From NCBI GenBank assembly GCA_964362125.1, contig CAYICS010000004.1, forward strand, positions 1-62,611: 62,611 bases of DNA, given 5' to 3'. This DNA is from an uncultured Candidatus Saccharibacteria bacterium. GTDB lineage: Bacteria > Patescibacteriota > Minisyncoccia > UBA6257 > UBA11618. Every line of letters begins with the position of its first letter. Within the stretch, counting starts at the first letter, position 1. A program made the translations under genes and the position numbers. Positions 11,789 to 59,003 of this stretch are shown here, piece by piece. The notes below the pieces were generated by a model that ran no database searches, was not told the origin of the DNA, and was given only the letters and a program-made list of their open reading frames with translations.

Positions 11789-11873
11789 GGAAGGGTCGCA
11801 TAGCGGTCTATTGCAGCGGCTTGGAAAGCCGCGCCCCGCAAGGGGCTCGTGGGTTCGAATCCCACCCCTTCCG
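11789..11873 (+). tRNA. tRNA-Ser (GGA), long variable arm; CCA not encoded at this copy
   Basis: GGAAGGG/CCCTTCC acceptor stem, anticodon loop TT-GGA-AA, GGTTCGAATCC T-loop. Confidence 0.95.
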
Positions 11874-11875
11874 CA

Positions 11876-11967: not shown

Positions 11968-12261
11968 ATGACTACGTGGCACGTGTATATGCTTCTTTGC
12001 GATCAGAAAACTTTTTATGTAGGCATTACCGATGATCCTAAAGAACGATTTGCAGAACACCAAGCGGGTAAGTCGCTTTTTACAAAAAAGTTTTCTGACA
12101 TTCAATTTGTCTACTGCGAAAACTATCCCACAAAGCGCGAATCAGCATCACGCGAAAAACAAATTAAGGGATGGTCGCATGCAAAGAAGCAAATGTTGAT
12201 TGATAGAAAGCTGGGATATAATTTTTGTACTGAGCTTGTTGAAGTTTTGGGGGTGGGATAA
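11968..12261 (+). CDS. Small stand-alone GIY-YIG nuclease (UPF0213/YhbQ-like)
   Basis: HVYMLL...FYVGITDD..R..H...RE.QIKGWS..KK motifs. Confidence 0.9.
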   Translation: MTTWHVYMLLCDQKTFYVGITDDPKERFAEHQAGKSLFTKKFSDIQFVYCENYPTKRESASREKQIKGWSHAKKQMLIDRKLGYNFCTELVEVLGVG

Positions 12262-12538
12262 CTTGCTCTGAGCCTGCCGAAGAGAATCCCACCCCTTCCG
12301 CCAGTTAGTAAATGAAGTTATTGGCTCGCCCGCTCCCACTTCGCCCTTCGGGCTATAAGGAACAAGTCGTGGGCTCGCCAGCCGTTTTTCGGGGAAATTT
12401 CAAGCCGTTTTGCCTGCCCGCCGAAGCCTTGGCGCAGGCAGGAATTCAAGTAAGGCCAAAAGCGGGCTTTTCTTTTCTGAATTGAAAGAAATCATAATTT
12501 TTGATAGTATAGTATAGAAGATTTGTTGAACAAATAAT

Positions 12539-13947: not shown

Positions 13948-15355
13948 CGGCTTTTCTTTAATTGAACTGGTTGTCTCTCTTGGCTTCATTGCTCTGGTTG
14001 CCGTCATTATTTTTGGAGAAATTATTTTTGGTCAGCGCACCAACTTTTTCTCTGATGATGCCACCCGAGCATCTTTTTTAGCTCAGGAAAAAATAGAAAT
14101 TTTAAGAAATATCCGCGACGCTGATTTTTTTGATCTAACCGCCGGCACGACAACGGAAACAATTGATAATTATTTTGAACGGCAGACCCAAATTACTGAT
14201 GTTGATAATTTTCGCAAGGAGGTGGTGGTAATTGTTAAAAAAATCAATCAACCGGCAGTGTCGGTGACTTTACGCGCCCGTTTTGCCAACTGGCTGGCGA
14301 CAGTTGAGGATTGGAGCCAGCCCAATCCCGAAGGCAGTTTTGATTTCACTCCGGAAAACAGCGGCTCTAACAATCACAATGCCAAGACCGTGACCGCTGT
14401 CGGCAACTATCTTTATATCGGCAACGCCAACAGCGCCGGCAAGGAATTGATTATTTTAGATATTACCAAAGTCCCGGTCTTAACTATCAAAGGGACGTTA
14501 GACTTAGACGGCAGTCCTCAAAAAATCGCTGTCTCCGGCGGCTATATTTACATCGCTTCTGATTCCAACACCGAAGAACTGCAGGTGATTGACGCCGCTG
14601 ACCCGGCCAATCCTCGGCAAATCGCCAGTTTTAATCTGACCAACGCCAACAGCGGCACTGATAATAGCGATGCCCTCTCCATCGAATCTATTGGGGTCCA
14701 ACCCCAATATATTGCGCTGGGGAGGAAGGGGGGCGCCGGCGAGGAGTTGTTTATTTTTGACGCGGCGGCGCCCACCTCGCCGCAGTTAATCGGCAAACTT
14801 CAATTAGACGGCACCCCGGCCGATCTTAAATTTTTAAATAATAAATTATTTATAGCTTCTGATGATGACGCTAAAGAATTTCAGATAGTTGATTTAGCCA
14901 ATCCCCAGTTTCCGGTTCTTATCGGCGGCTTTAATCTGGACAGCGGCAATAATACAGCTGATGCTTTGGCCCTTGATATTAAGCCGGAAGGCGATCGTCT
15001 CTACCTCGGCCGGGCCGGCAGCAACAATGCTCCGGAATTTTATCTTTTCAATATCAGCAATGCCAACGCTCCCCAGCTTTTATCTATTTTCAATGTTGGC
15101 GGCAACGGCGCTGATATTAAACATCTTTCTTTTGCCCTGACCCGCAGTTTAATTTTTGCCCTCACTGACGATACGGCCGCTGATTTTCAGACGATTAATA
15201 TTGCCAATGAACTTTCGCCGGCGCTTTTCTCCAAGTTGGATGTCAGTGGCTCGCCTAATCAAGCTGATTACAGCCCCTTGGCGCAAAAAATGTTCGTCGC
15301 CGGTCAGTCCAATCCGGAAATACAAATCGTCGCCCCAAGGCTAGTTTTCGACTAG
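13931..15355 (+). CDS. Minor pilin fused to an LVIVD-like beta-propeller
   Basis: G-FSLIEL prepilin motif; repeated ELxIxDxxxPxxPxxxGxLxLDG units. Confidence 0.85.
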   Translation: MARFNNGFSLIELVVSLGFIALVAVIIFGEIIFGQRTNFFSDDATRASFLAQEKIEILRNIRDADFFDLTAGTTTETIDNYFERQTQITDVDNFRKEVVVIVKKINQPAVSVTLRARFANWLATVEDWSQPNPEGSFDFTPENSGSNNHNAKTVTAVGNYLYIGNANSAGKELIILDITKVPVLTIKGTLDLDGSPQKIAVSGGYIYIASDSNTEELQVIDAADPANPRQIASFNLTNANSGTDNSDALSIESIGVQPQYIALGRKGGAGEELFIFDAAAPTSPQLIGKLQLDGTPADLKFLNNKLFIASDDDAKEFQIVDLANPQFPVLIGGFNLDSGNNTADALALDIKPEGDRLYLGRAGSNNAPEFYLFNISNANAPQLLSIFNVGGNGADIKHLSFALTRSLIFALTDDTAADFQTINIANELSPALFSKLDVSGSPNQADYSPLAQKMFVAGQSNPEIQIVAPRLVFD

Positions 15356-27403: not shown

Positions 27404-27407
27404 CAGA

Positions 27408-27508
27408 GTATCGATGCTAATATACGAATGAATGCGAATGATACGAATAGGAATACGGATTCGCAACCCCATTCGTAGATTCGCAAATTCGTAGATTCGC
27501 ATCGAAGC
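27408..27508. repeat. ~100-bp GTATCGATGC...GCATCGA palindromic element, copy 1
   Basis: ACGAAT/ATTCGT arrays; homologous copies at 42517, 47228, 49982, 51054, 58899. Confidence 0.9.
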
Positions 27509-27517
27509 CCAAAACCT

Positions 27518-47222: not shown

Positions 47223-47227
47223 ATTTG

Positions 47228-47327
47228 GTATCGATGCTAATATACGAATGATACTAATTATACTAATACCGATTATGATTCGTAACCCATTCGTATCATT
47301 AGTAAATTAGTATATTGGCATCGAAGC
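47228..47327. repeat. GTATCGATGC palindromic element, copy 3
   Basis: Near-exact reverse complement of 49982-50081. Confidence 0.9.
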
Positions 47328-49981: not shown

Positions 49982-50081
49982 GTATCGATACCAATATACT
50001 AATTTACGAATGATACGAATGGGTTACGAATCACAATCGGTATTAGTATAATTAGTATCATTCGTATATTAGCATCGATAC
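49982..50081. repeat. GTATCGATGC palindromic element, copy 4 (inverted)
   Basis: Reverse complement of copy 3 with few mismatches. Confidence 0.9.
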
Positions 50082-50093
50082 CCAATAACTTTA

Positions 50094-50499: not shown

Positions 50500-51054
50500 A
50501 TGAGTAAACTAGGCAGAAAACCAATTGCTATTCCCAGTGACATAGAGGCCCGGCTGGCGGACGGCATTTTTTATTTTAAGGGCAAGGCCGGGCAGACCGA
50601 ACTGAAAGTCCTGCCTTATCTTGAAGCCAAACTTCAGGATCAAGAGATTACTGTTAAGCCGGTTAATAATATCCGGCAGGCTCGGGCTAATTGGGGGACG
50701 ATGGTTTCTTTAATAAAAAATGCCATTGCCGGTGTTAGTGAGGGTTTTAGCAAAGAACTGCAAATCGAAGGCATTGGTTATCGGGCTAGTATTGAAGGGG
50801 ACAAGTTAAATCTCAGCATCGGCTTCAGTCATCCGGTAAAATATCAGCCGCCAACGGGCGTGAAAATCAGTGTTGAGAAAAACATCATCAAGATTTCGGG
50901 AATTGATAAGCAGTTAGTGGGATTGGCGGCTTCGCAGATCCGTAAATTGAAGAAACCCGAACCTTATCAGGGCAAGGGGATCAGATATGTGGGCGAGGTC
51001 ATCAGGAGAAAGGCCGGGAAAAAAGCAGCGGCAGCGGCAGGCGCAGCCGCCTAG
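50500..51054 (+). CDS. rplF: 50S ribosomal protein L6
   Basis: SKLGRKPI, GIGYRA, PEPYQGKGIRY. Confidence 0.98.
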   Translation: MSKLGRKPIAIPSDIEARLADGIFYFKGKAGQTELKVLPYLEAKLQDQEITVKPVNNIRQARANWGTMVSLIKNAIAGVSEGFSKELQIEGIGYRASIEGDKLNLSIGFSHPVKYQPPTGVKISVEKNIIKISGIDKQLVGLAASQIRKLKKPEPYQGKGIRYVGEVIRRKAGKKAAAAAGAAA

Positions 51055-51159
51055 TATCGATGCTAATATACGAATGAATGCGAATGATGCGAATAAGCTC
51101 ACGAATGATTCGTAAACCCCATTCGTATCATTCGTAAATTCGTAGATTCGCATCGAAGC
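51054..51159. repeat. GTATCGATGC palindromic element, copy 5
   Basis: Begins on the G of the rplF TAG stop. Confidence 0.9.
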
Positions 51160-51176
51160 CTAAATCAAATCCTAAT

Positions 51177-51521: not shown

Positions 51522-51992
51522 ATGATTCAAGATTTAAGAAGACAAGAAGAATTTAAAGATAAAGTGTTAGACCTACGTCGAGTGACGCGAGTGGTGGCCG
51601 GCGGCAAGCGCTTTCGTTTTCGGGCAACAGTGGTTATCGGCGATTTTAAAGGCCGGGTAGGAGTCGGTGTTGCTAAAGGTTTAGATGTCCAGCAAGCAAT
51701 CGCCAAAGCTAAGGCCGCTGCCAGGAAAAATATTTTTTATATACCCTTAAAAGAGAGAACAATCACTCACGAGGTCGAGGCAAAGTTTAGTGCTGCTAGA
51801 ATTAAATTAAAGCCAGCCAAAGAAGGTCATGGCATGAGGGCCGGCGGCGCCGCCCGGACGGTTTTAAACTTAGCTGGTATTAAAGATGTGACAGCTAAGG
51901 CCTTGGGAAGAACACCTAACAAGTTGACCAATGCTCTGGCAACCCTGGAGGCGTTAAAAAAGTTAAAAAAACATGCAGCTCCATCAAATTAG
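51522..51992 (+). CDS. rpsE: 30S ribosomal protein S5
   Basis: RVTRVVAGGKRFRF, GRVGVG.AK. Confidence 0.98.
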   Translation: MIQDLRRQEEFKDKVLDLRRVTRVVAGGKRFRFRATVVIGDFKGRVGVGVAKGLDVQQAIAKAKAAARKNIFYIPLKERTITHEVEAKFSAARIKLKPAKEGHGMRAGGAARTVLNLAGIKDVTAKALGRTPNKLTNALATLEALKKLKKHAAPSN

Positions 51993-52341
51993 ACCAACTG
52001 ATCGAAAATATCCGAAGCCGCGGGTGGGTAGAGGGGGCAAGCGGGGCACTTATTCTGGTCGGGGAATGAAAGGACAAAAAGCCCGGGCTGGCCATCGCAT
52101 CCGGCCAGCTGAGCGTGATTTTCTTTTGCGTTTGCCTAAACTGCGCGGCTTTAAAAATAAACCGCTTCAGCCCAAATTACCAATAATTAATGTGGGAGAT
52201 TTAGAGAGGCGCGGCTTACCTGATTATCCGGTAAAAATTCTCGGTAGGGGCGAATTAACCAAGCCGTTTCATATCAAAGGCCGGCCGGTTTCTAAGTCAG
52301 CTAAAGAAAAAATAATTAAAGCTGGCGGTTCGGTGCAATGA
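51973..52341 (+). CDS. rplO: 50S ribosomal protein L15 (short); rpmD absent upstream
   Basis: RVGRGGKRG.YSGRGMKGQKAR, LPKLRGF. Confidence 0.96.
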   Translation: MQLHQIRPTDRKYPKPRVGRGGKRGTYSGRGMKGQKARAGHRIRPAERDFLLRLPKLRGFKNKPLQPKLPIINVGDLERRGLPDYPVKILGRGELTKPFHIKGRPVSKSAKEKIIKAGGSVQ

Positions 52342-52624
52342 ATCCCGTTAGAGACAACCATGTTCTACTATGTTTATGTCTTACAAAGCAAAAAGGATAG
52401 ACGCTGGTATACAGGATTTACCGATGATCTACGGAAGCGCTTTAATCAACATAACGCAAATCTACAGGGCTGGACTAAAAATCGTGGCCCTTTTGACCTT
52501 ATCTACTTTGAGGGTTGTAAAAATGTTACCGATGCAAGGTCGAGAGAAAAATATCTTAAATCAGGCATGGGTAAGCGCTACCTTAAAAATAGATTAAAGC
52601 GCTTCCTGTCTCTAACGGGATGAA
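52342..52624. mobile_element. IR-flanked GIY-YIG mini-element in the rplO/secY stop-start overlap
   Basis: 15-bp perfect IR 52342-52356/52607-52621; ATGAA direct repeat 52338-52342/52620-52624. Confidence 0.8.
52360..52623 (+). CDS. Small stand-alone GIY-YIG nuclease
   Basis: YVYVLQS...WYTGFTDDLRKR..QHN...REKYLKSG.GK. Confidence 0.92.
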   Translation: MFYYVYVLQSKKDRRWYTGFTDDLRKRFNQHNANLQGWTKNRGPFDLIYFEGCKNVTDARSREKYLKSGMGKRYLKNRLKRFLSLTG

Positions 52625-53882
52625 CTTCCTCAACGCTTTCAAAATATCAGAGATAAGAAATAAGATTCTTGTCATCGCCGGCCTGCTGATTGCCTTTCGG
52701 GCAATGGCCGCCATTCCTTTGCCGGGCATTGATCTGATCCGGCTTCGAGAATTATTTTCTTCCAACCAGTTGCTGGGCTTCTTAAATATTTTCTCTGGGG
52801 GGGCCCTTGATAATCTTTCAATCGTCATGTTAGGGGTCGGCCCCTACATTACTGCCACTATCGTCATGCAGTTGTTGACGATGATTTTCCCGGCATTAAA
52901 AGCAATGTATTACGAAGAGGGAGCGCTGGGGCGGGCTAAATTCAATCGTTATTCAATTTACTTAACCGTGCCTTTGGCCGCTTTGCAGTCTTATGGTTTT
53001 TTGAATTTACTGAACCAGCAGGGGGTTTTTACTAATTTTAGTTTATTCAATGTTTTAACGATGGTGATTGTGGCTACCGCCGGCTCGATGATTCTGGTTT
53101 GGTTGGGCAATATTATTACTCAGCAGAAAATCGGCAATGGTGTTTCTTTAATAATTTTTGCCGGCATCGTCGCCGGCATTCCGCAAGCAGTCCAGGCCGG
53201 TATTCTTTCCTATGACCCCTCAATTATTACCACCTACATTGCTTTTGCAGTTTTGGCGGTGATTATTGTGGCTGGAGTGGTGTTTGTCACTGAAGGCGAG
53301 AGAAAAATTCCGGTCTCTTATGCCAAACGGATTCGGGGGATGAGGATGTATGGCGGTGCCGCCAGTTACCTGCCGCTGCGGGTTAATCAGGCCGGGGTCA
53401 TTCCTATCATCTTTGCTATTTCCATTTTGCTTTTTCCGCAGTTCTTAGCCCAGATCAGCGCCATCATCTCCCGAGATTTTTCGGTGACTTTTAATGAATG
53501 GGTCAATTACTTTTTCAATAACCAGATTATTTACGGCTTGGTTTATTTTGTGCTGGTAGTGGTCTTCACTTATTTTTACACGGCCGTCACTTTTGATCCC
53601 AAGGAAATTGCCAAAAACCTGCAGCAGGCTGGCGGTTTTGTGCCGGGGATCAGGCCGGGAGAGCCGACGGCTGATTTTTTAAGCAAGGTTCTTAACCGCA
53701 TTACTTTGTTCGGCGCTATCTTTTTGGGGGTGATCGCGGTTCTGCCCAACATCACTCAGATTATCACCGGCATTCAGCGACTGGCGATCGGCGGGACAGC
53801 TCTCTTGATTGTGGTGTCAGTGGCTTTGGAAACAATGCGGCAGATTGAAGGCCAGTTGGCTATAAGGGAGTATGATTTTTGA
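52620..53882 (+). CDS. secY: Preprotein translocase subunit SecY
   Basis: LGVGPYITATI, GNGVSLIIF, PLRVNQAGVIPIIFA, GGTALLIVV. Confidence 0.99.
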   Translation: MNFLNAFKISEIRNKILVIAGLLIAFRAMAAIPLPGIDLIRLRELFSSNQLLGFLNIFSGGALDNLSIVMLGVGPYITATIVMQLLTMIFPALKAMYYEEGALGRAKFNRYSIYLTVPLAALQSYGFLNLLNQQGVFTNFSLFNVLTMVIVATAGSMILVWLGNIITQQKIGNGVSLIIFAGIVAGIPQAVQAGILSYDPSIITTYIAFAVLAVIIVAGVVFVTEGERKIPVSYAKRIRGMRMYGGAASYLPLRVNQAGVIPIIFAISILLFPQFLAQISAIISRDFSVTFNEWVNYFFNNQIIYGLVYFVLVVVFTYFYTAVTFDPKEIAKNLQQAGGFVPGIRPGEPTADFLSKVLNRITLFGAIFLGVIAVLPNITQIITGIQRLAIGGTALLIVVSVALETMRQIEGQLAIREYDF

Positions 53883-58892: not shown

Positions 58893-58898
58893 CACTCA

Positions 58899-59003
58899 GT
58901 ATCGATGCTAATATACGAATGAATGCGAATGATACGAATAAGCACACGAATCGATTGGCAACCCTATTCGTAGATTCGCAAATTCGTAGATTCGCATCAA
59001 AGC
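58899..59003. repeat. GTATCGATGC palindromic element, copy 6
   Basis: First 41 nt identical to copy 1; fills the gatC-gatA spacer. Confidence 0.9.

Follow-up and report, generated by a model that had tools for sequence, protein, structure and literature searches.

How does a nuclease gene come to lie between two essential genes, and how can both of them remain intact around it? This question is raised by the rplO-secY junction of an uncultured Candidatus Saccharibacteria bacterium (assembly GCA_964362125.1, 618 kb in 24 contigs), in which the genes for ribosomal protein L15 and SecY are separated by a short gene for a GIY-YIG nuclease. The window analysed here is the whole of contig CAYICS010000004.1 (contig C4 in the following), i.e., 62,611 nucleotides read on the forward strand. 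An earlier note on this DNA had described the nuclease gene and its flanking repeats as a nuclease-only mobile unit inserted at the junction, and the analysis supports that description. Positions 52343-52619 are probably a 277-bp transposon-like element of a family spread across the Candidate Phyla Radiation (CPR), inserted on the start codon of secY with duplication of the pentanucleotide ATGAA. It may be the smallest self-contained transposon-like element known. The family is apparently unpublished, a full-text literature search of a limited collection having found no description of it.

All features of the junction lie on the forward strand. The rplO gene (51973-52341, Pfam PF00828) ends with CAA TGA, and its stop codon (52339-52341) falls inside the left copy of ATGAA (52338-52342), which is composed of the original secY start codon and two further nucleotides. 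The left arm of an inverted repeat (IR), ATCCCGTTAGAGACA (52342-52356), pairs with a right arm, TGTCTCTAACGGGAT (52607-52621), over 15 bp with zero mismatches, forming the helix termed P1. Between them opens the reading frame of the nuclease (52360-52623), an 87-residue, single-domain protein. The last codons of this open reading frame (ORF), CTG TCT CTA ACG GGA TGA, translate the right arm into LSLTG, a C-terminus conserved across the nuclease family. The TGA (52621-52623) is formed from the right copy of ATGAA (52620-52624), the ATG of which is the working start codon of secY (52620-53882), the stop of one gene and the start of the next sharing ATGA. Both host ORFs are complete and retain their L15 and SecY domain matches (PF00344, E=2.8e-100 for SecY). 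The element proper starts with TCCCGTTAGAGACA and ends with TGTCTCTAACGGG. Deletion of 52343-52624 in silico yields CAATGAACTTC, and the empty site reads CAATGAACTTCC. The layout proposed in the earlier note, from the end of rplO through the repeats, the 87-residue nuclease and the two ATGAA copies to the start of secY, is correct in every detail, as are the intactness of both host genes and the overlap of the nuclease stop with the rebuilt secY ATG. A chance origin of the IR is rejected, since its 13-mer core occurs without mismatch at only two sites of the window, namely the two arms, and recurs as pairs across genomes. Termini derived from a tRNA, suspected from a tRNA-Ser 3' end that brackets a paralogous nuclease gene (see below), are likewise rejected, as no tRNA of the genome carries CCCGTTAGAGAC. 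A search of the element against Rfam with E up to 1 yielded no match to an RNA family, intron or ribozyme.

The insertion is derived. In all 29 relatives examined, which are members of the same family or order, rplO and secY are direct neighbours without an intervening gene, their distance ranging from -11 to +226 nt and mostly from -11 to +22. One of these relatives (L026) displays ATGAACTT, the very stop/start overlap that is restored here when the insert is removed, as had been claimed. Presence or absence at the strain level was probed using contigs that encode identical L15 or nuclease proteins. Independent Hainich and Logan assemblies (L285-L289) stop 220-250 nt past the rplO stop, in the nuclease part GMGKRYLKN..., which is near-identical among the elements of many community members. 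Such contig breaks, which fall within the 3' part of the nuclease gene that is conserved in the family, look like assembly tangles rather than polymorphism, and the elements fragment CPR metagenome assemblies.

The unit is not confined to this junction. The genome holds three copies, one bearing the gene and two devoid of it. In the two gene-less copies the IR pair is ~124 bp apart; they are found at the pheS/pheT junction and between the genes for a transketolase C-terminal subunit and a secreted protein, and in both the right end (...CTAACGGGATG) provides the start codon of the downstream gene. Public scans for the IR 15-mer covered species-representative genomes and metagenomes, and their figures are those among the matches listed. 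Only pairs of opposite orientation were counted, because single 15-mer matches are expected by chance at that scale. At least 196 IR pairs were found, distributed in size classes of ~118-128 bp (the ~122-bp form, in the majority), ~67 bp, ~55 bp and 276-282 bp. Among the matches listed, the hosts are Saccharibacteria, many Parcubacteria lineages and a few Planctomycetota bins. Public CPR genomes and metagenomes contain hundreds of copies of the unit, with more than 100 different flanks, indicating many non-orthologous loci. Pairs with and without a gene, a search for which the earlier note had put forward as its own test, are present in this genome and in public loci alike. In the ~280-bp class, to which the window element belongs, most copies encode an 84-87-residue GIY-YIG protein ending with GMGKRYLKNRLKRFLSLTG (...KRFLSLTG), and the others are mostly frameshifted relics of the same gene. 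Across the family, the sole gene found between the termini is that of an 84-94-residue Slx1/UPF0213-like GIY-YIG nuclease with an intact active site.

This distribution bears directly on one explanation of the locus, that of a free-standing homing endonuclease gene with the rplO-secY junction as its specific site, comparable to seg/mob of phage T4. Such a gene would account for a GIY-YIG ORF wedged between two highly conserved essential genes, and the protein does match the group I intron endonuclease model TIGR01453, although weakly and far under the cut-off (16 bits against 56, E=0.008). However, over 100 different gene starts carry the same unit, a separate duplication marking each of them, and none of the 29 relatives has a gene at this junction. 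The protein also differs from I-TevI and the Seg enzymes by the absence of a DNA-binding domain from its 87 residues, and no intron RNA accompanies it in the Rfam search. The multi-locus distribution effectively refutes homing, which we consider scarcely credible.

The insertion of a transposon-like element, on the other hand, is documented by its target-site duplication. A total of 118 unique copies were oriented by their sub-terminal hairpin or their gene, and the flank tests were run on the 107 copies that measure 100 bp or more. Their consensus is ATGA/ATCCCG...CGGGAT/GAA. In the 63 copies with a left ATG, base 4, which follows the ATG, is equal on both sides in 61 cases (A-A 50, G-G 9, C-C 1, T-T 1). 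Base 5 is equal on both sides in 60 of 61 cases (A-A 53, G-G 7, one exception), and base 6 shows no co-variation between sides in the family copies. The duplication is therefore exactly 5 bp long (ATGNN, consensus ATGRA), and the element proper is TCCCG...CGGG, at 52343-52619. Duplications of 2 bp (AT) or 4 bp are excluded by the co-variation of base 5. The ATGAA repeat is hence a true target-site duplication, as the earlier note had it. The 15-bp IR reported there is perfect, but only 13 bp of it (52344-52356 and 52607-52619) belong to the element: the initial A of the left arm, like the final AT of the right one, is part of the duplication, with which the repeat overlaps palindromically.

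What is targeted is the start codon and not, as had been proposed, a stop/start overlap. In 89 of the 107 copies, an ORF of 60 codons or more starts at the rebuilt ATG. Only 31 copies have the stop of a co-directional upstream gene at their left end or within it, and 40 others have an ordinary spacer of 1-59 nt; among the copies with a left ATGA, 12 of 50 use its TGA as the upstream stop. Overlaps thus account for ~30% of the copies, and the start codon (ATGRA) is the target. The overlap with the rplO stop is, at this locus, incidental to a compact operon. The insertions share one fixed orientation, and the start codons that they occupy are real ones, belonging to a wide range of genes. Counts of ATGRA in this genome are 134 at called gene starts, 261 in non-coding DNA and 1,964 within genes. 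If only the word mattered and intragenic insertions were purged, about one third of the copies would be expected at gene starts, compared with ~85% observed, which is suggestive of a start-codon preference beyond the ATGRA word, the gene calling being crude. Of 83 short copies, 70 have an A as base 5; the corresponding share among the gene starts of this genome is ~46%.

The target also supplies the element with its signals for translation. Among the 120 closest clusters of the nuclease, 55 begin with MNPVR(D), i.e., ATG-AAT-CCC-GTT-AGA-GAC, which is the left duplicate followed by the left terminus, and 43 of these 55 possess no other Met near the N-terminus (residues 6-10). The codons of these 43 clusters indicate that the nuclease uses the original start codon of the host gene, and presumably its ribosome-binding site too. 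At the opposite end, the TGA stop of the nuclease is made from the right duplicate ATGA, providing a functional reason for the ATGA preference. The right terminus harbors a TAA at -7 and a TGA at +1 relative to the rebuilt ATG, the third frame being open into the host gene; with stops in two frames and the third open, ribosomes in any frame end beside the host start or enter it. In 40% of the short copies, as compared with 9% of shuffled sequences, the terminal TAA or TGA is precisely where the ORF from the left ATG stops, a trend rather than a rule, and in-frame read-through into the host gene was observed in 0 of 53 short copies. At the window locus, ribosomes coming from rplO would re-initiate on the nuclease ORF, terminate at ATGA and restart on secY, keeping the essential gene expressed. 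In many relatives of the element, translation of the nuclease would begin at the duplicated host ATG itself.

Besides helix P1, formed by the termini, the element harbors a second perfect 15-bp IR that goes beyond the earlier note. This helix, P2, pairs GGAAGCGCTTTAATC (52433-52447, codons R-K-R-F-N) with GATTAAAGCGCTTCC (52592-52606, coding for L-K-R-F), the latter adjoining the right terminal arm with no spacer. When the element is folded as single-stranded DNA (ssDNA), both helices are present in the minimum free energy and centroid structures (z=-4.2), and none of 200 shuffled sequences folds as well. In gene-bearing copies the 3' arm of P2 pairs over 12-16 bp with codons ~24-29 (L-R-K-R-F), and differences between copies are compensatory, e.g., GGAAGCGCTTTAATC, GAAAACGCTTCAAGC and GGAACCGCTTCAATCT. 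A perfect stem of at least 5 bp adjoins the right end in 79 of 83 short copies, against 2 of 83 shuffled ones; 38 different stem sequences are observed, usually just preceded by TTAC or nnAC. Some short copies retain coding-type P2 stems (GGAAACGC/GCGTTTCC), and some retain recognisable N-terminal codons (MFYT..LQSIKDKRRYT). On account of these coding remnants, the short forms are full elements that have lost the ~150-nt P2 loop. The ~67-bp forms possess two small hairpins between the termini and nothing more. All size forms, however reduced, retain P1 at their termini and a sub-terminal P2.

The protein is an unambiguous GIY-YIG nuclease. It matches PF01541 with 64.8 bits, well above the cut-off of 22.6 (E=9e-18), and the catalytic residues Y6, Y17, R27, H31, E63 and N77 are invariant in 15 family members. 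Its AlphaFold (AF2) model has a pLDDT of 91.6 and displays strands at 3-10, 16-21 and 45-53 with three helices, and no extra, DNA-binding domain in the 87 residues. Domain score, catalytic residues and the beta-beta-alpha-beta-alpha fold together place it in the GIY-YIG superfamily, in a family of more than 2,700 clusters at 90% identity. Foldseek returns GIY-YIG structures only, with 1ZG2, Slx1 and HIGLE at TM values of ~0.55-0.67. The nearest proteins by sequence and fold are those of UPF0213/COG2827, namely Bacillus halodurans BH0048 (PDB ID: 1ZG2), the best sequence match (E=8.6e-8), and Enterococcus faecalis EF2693 (PDB ID: 1YWL), which share the same catalytic residues; Slx1 and HIGLE come next, and I-TevI and UvrC are more distant. 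To our knowledge, UPF0213 proteins have no established function. Unlike the present nuclease, UPF0213, Slx1 and HIGLE proteins are not known inside IR-bounded units; furthermore, Slx1 requires Slx4 and extra domains, whereas the element nuclease consists of one domain.

Judged on size, domain and layout, the closest known system is that of the Ssn nucleases and their NTS hairpin repeats. Ssn proteins (CDD cd10448), from Pseudomonadati, are single-domain GIY-YIG enzymes of 94 residues that cut ssDNA a few nucleotides upstream of NTS/SRM hairpins; in many cases such repeats also flank the gene itself, and the authors point out an architecture resembling that of insertion sequences (IS) (Chenal et al. 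2025, Nat Commun 16:2388, PMC11893778). The element resembles them by a single-domain GIY-YIG nuclease of ~90 residues, a gene bracketed by hairpin-forming repeats and many scattered gene-less copies. It may then be asked whether the window unit is itself such a system, domesticated by its host, in which a site-specific ssDNA nuclease and its cognate hairpins serve DNA uptake, recombination control or gene regulation and the repeats spread by recombination. The common size, fold class and flanking repeats speak for this; yet the SRM motif, HGTCWYN(0-2)YYVSBRHN(0-5)WNVSBRGN(0-2)RNCYNB, has no match near the five small GIY-YIG genes or the three elements of this genome nor in any of the 118 family copies, and its 3 hits in the genome (~2 expected, 0-5 in shuffled sequences) reveal no enrichment. 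The termini are IRs 95-250 nt apart supplemented by a second helix, and the ORF fills the unit and borrows its start and stop from the target in a CPR host. The precise 5-bp duplication, fixed orientation, start-codon placement and decayed pseudogene copies point instead to selfish insertion events; deletion derivatives are a further feature not reported for Ssn. The nearest sequence and fold matches are UPF0213 and Slx1. Domestication by the host is therefore regarded as improbable.

The transposon-like reading also finds parallels among IS and miniature inverted-repeat transposable elements (MITEs) such as Correia/NEMIS, ERIC and RUP. The element shares with them terminal IRs, a duplication of fixed length, "autonomous" and gene-less deleted forms at many loci, and co-transcription with neighbouring genes. 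It differs from them by its target, a start codon that is rebuilt on insertion, and by the lack of any recognised transposase (DDE, DEDD, HUH, Ser or Tyr recombinase), its sole gene being that of an 87-residue nuclease domain. The hallmarks of a classical DNA transposon are thus present save for a recognised transposase class. At 277 bp, it is several-fold smaller than any IS that we know of. The IS200/IS605 and REP/RAYT systems are similar in their sub-terminal hairpins, their strong polarity, reflected here in the fixed orientation, and the association of a small enzyme with many short palindromic repeats. They possess neither terminal IRs nor target duplications, and their enzyme is a HUH tyrosine (Y1) transposase; in contrast, the element has a terminal IR and a 5-bp duplication and carries no Y1 gene. 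The element therefore combines an IS/MITE-like architecture with an Ssn-like nuclease-plus-repeat logic.

Which enzyme moves it? The features of the sequence suggest the nuclease itself. It is favoured as the mobilising enzyme because IS200/IS605-type elements lack the IR and duplication, because the nuclease or its relic is the only coding content of the unit, and because the cis elements lie in its codons. In the mechanism that we envisage, the nuclease would be directed to its own DNA by the P1/P2 junction, folded as a single strand or a cruciform, much as Ssn enzymes recognise their hairpins. It would then make cuts 5 nt apart at ATGRA in donor and target, leaving identical non-palindromic overhangs of 5 nt on the donor ends and the target; this cut-and-ligate move would be finished by host ligase or repair. 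A staggered cut of this kind would account for the duplication of 5 bp, the preference for ATGRA and the constant orientation of the insertions. An 86-94-residue Slx1/UPF0213-like GIY-YIG domain acting alone would then be the "transposase" of a new class of prokaryotic elements, the smallest autonomous ones known (276-277 bp), moving by a route akin to restriction and ligation, with borrowed start and stop codons and no expression signals of their own. We put this forward tentatively, as a proposal with somewhat less than an even chance.

Alternatively, the repeats could be mobilised in trans by another enzyme, either a Y1/HUH protein of the IS200/RAYT type or some other transposase, the GIY-YIG gene being an adapted passenger. 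Profile searches found three Y1_Tnp-like ORFs of ~250 residues in this genome (G000:C9:6039-6269, C8:3600-3827 and C3:41356-41583), which match the C-terminal two thirds of the Y1_Tnp (IS200/RAYT) model only; no DDE_Tnp_1 or rve match was found anywhere in it. In the other CPR genomes searched, similar Y1-like ORFs of ~230-270 residues occur commonly. Sub-terminal hairpins such as P2 are what Y1 enzymes recognise, and Y1_Tnp is found in 24 of 32 other genomes with gene-less copies. It is, however, absent from 8 of these 32, whereas the nuclease family is present in all 32 (~20 with full-length matches). Furthermore, nearly all long copies contain no coding sequence other than the nuclease gene or a frameshifted relic of it, and termini and P2 embedded in nuclease codons, with start and stop taken from the target, are hard to explain for a passenger. 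Mobilisation in trans is for these reasons considered unlikely, though it deserves somewhat more credit than domestication.

Several observations weigh against self-mobilisation by the nuclease or against the insertion model as a whole. Terminal IRs with a 5-bp duplication are the classic mark of DDE transposases and typical of conventional transposases in general, and we know of no GIY-YIG nuclease that makes 5-nt staggered cuts or performs strand transfer; both points count in favour of mobilisation in trans. Small GIY-YIG genes are near-ubiquitous in CPR, making the co-occurrence in 32 of 32 genomes weak evidence. No empty site, excision product or transposition event was observed: six of six independent Hainich groundwater contigs, sharing identical L15 or nuclease proteins, carry the insert and are 100% identical across it. 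Candidate excision footprints, i.e., tandem ATGRA-ATGRA before a gene, exceed spaced controls few-fold, with only 19 cases, several of them intragenic. The left ATG duplicate is missing in 44 of the 107 family copies, and both gene-less copies of this genome lack it, a single A being left. An ATG to ATT change is common at the left end, and the loss may reflect either decay of a useless start codon or a second insertion route. In the secY-linked copy, which is one base longer, the left ATG is not in frame with the nuclease ORF; the ORF has an ATG of its own at 52360 but lacks an obvious Shine-Dalgarno sequence. Finally, 60% of the short copies have an interior stop in the left-ATG frame, and the translational relay is therefore not universal.

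There is a substantial chance that the element represents a new catalytic class of transposon. Should the nuclease drive its own spread, this class would be new among prokaryotic transposons, and the lower size limit of an autonomous element would be set at ~277 bp, with every base coding or structural. The family would illustrate a route for selfish DNA into extremely compact genomes: landing on a start codon, duplicating it and keeping the translational relay into genes such as secY and pheT. Re-annotation would be needed for thousands of CPR genes now listed as "excinuclease ABC subunit C" or as "GIY-YIG nuclease family protein", and predictions of CPR operons and start codons would need to allow for such inserts. 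As has been argued for the Ssn enzymes, an 87-residue nuclease whose specificity is defined by both structure and sequence could also find use as a tool.

The genome contains five small GIY-YIG genes, and the IR is present only at that of the rplO-secY junction. Three of the other four have called tRNA genes as neighbours, and tRNA-like repeats flank the last one. A 97-residue member is encoded in the window at 11968-12261, just past tRNA-Ser(GGA) (11789-11874). The 3' end of this tRNA, GAATCCCACCCCTTCCGC, recurs after the nuclease gene at 12284-12301, that copy having CCA, and a 24-nt unit, CTTCGGCAAGCTCAGTGCAAGCAA, is found three times upstream of the gene and once, inverted, downstream. The segment 11789-12303 resembles a sister mini-element in which a portion of a tRNA gene, and not a start codon, is duplicated.

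A second paralog (36919-36677 in G000:C5:36600-37260, minus strand) lies between copies of a 40-nt direct repeat, AGATTCCGCAGTAGCTCAGCGGTAGAGCAACCGGCTGTGAA, that resembles the 5' half of tRNA-His as far as its anticodon loop; a 20-nt palindrome, CCTGCCTGCCGGCAGGCAGG, interrupts the upstream copy. Hairpin repeats (CCCCCACACCTA) are found near C5:37030-37230, and ARAGORN predicts no tRNA on contig C5. A third (G000:C6:3950-4600, minus strand) is located between tRNA-Ile and tRNA-Val, and its TAG stop falls in TAGCTCAG of an intact tRNA-Val(GAC). Upstream of it are a 17-nt tRNA 5' fragment (GGGGCGCGTAGCTCAGT) and four tandem hairpins. The C6 hairpin GTCCGAC-TACG-GTCGGAC has the same sequence as P2 in the gene-less copy (C2:81178-81195), and the rest of the genome does not contain it. 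The fifth small GIY-YIG gene (14766-15007 in G000:C11:14531-15007) is ~160 nt downstream of tRNA-Gly(TCC), the spacer being rich in hairpins (IRs 14604-14616/14733-14745 and 14622-14631/14694-14703).

Unrelated palindromic repeats of ~105 bp, rich in ACGAAT (TCGATGCTAATATACGAATGAATGCGAAT...ATTCGCAAATTCGTAGATTCGCATCGA), are also observed in intergenic gaps, including that of rplF/rplR. Their copies are 84-91% identical and are located in the window at 51053-51164, 58898-59003 and 27407-27513, and at 49985-50086 / 47223-47324 (inverted).

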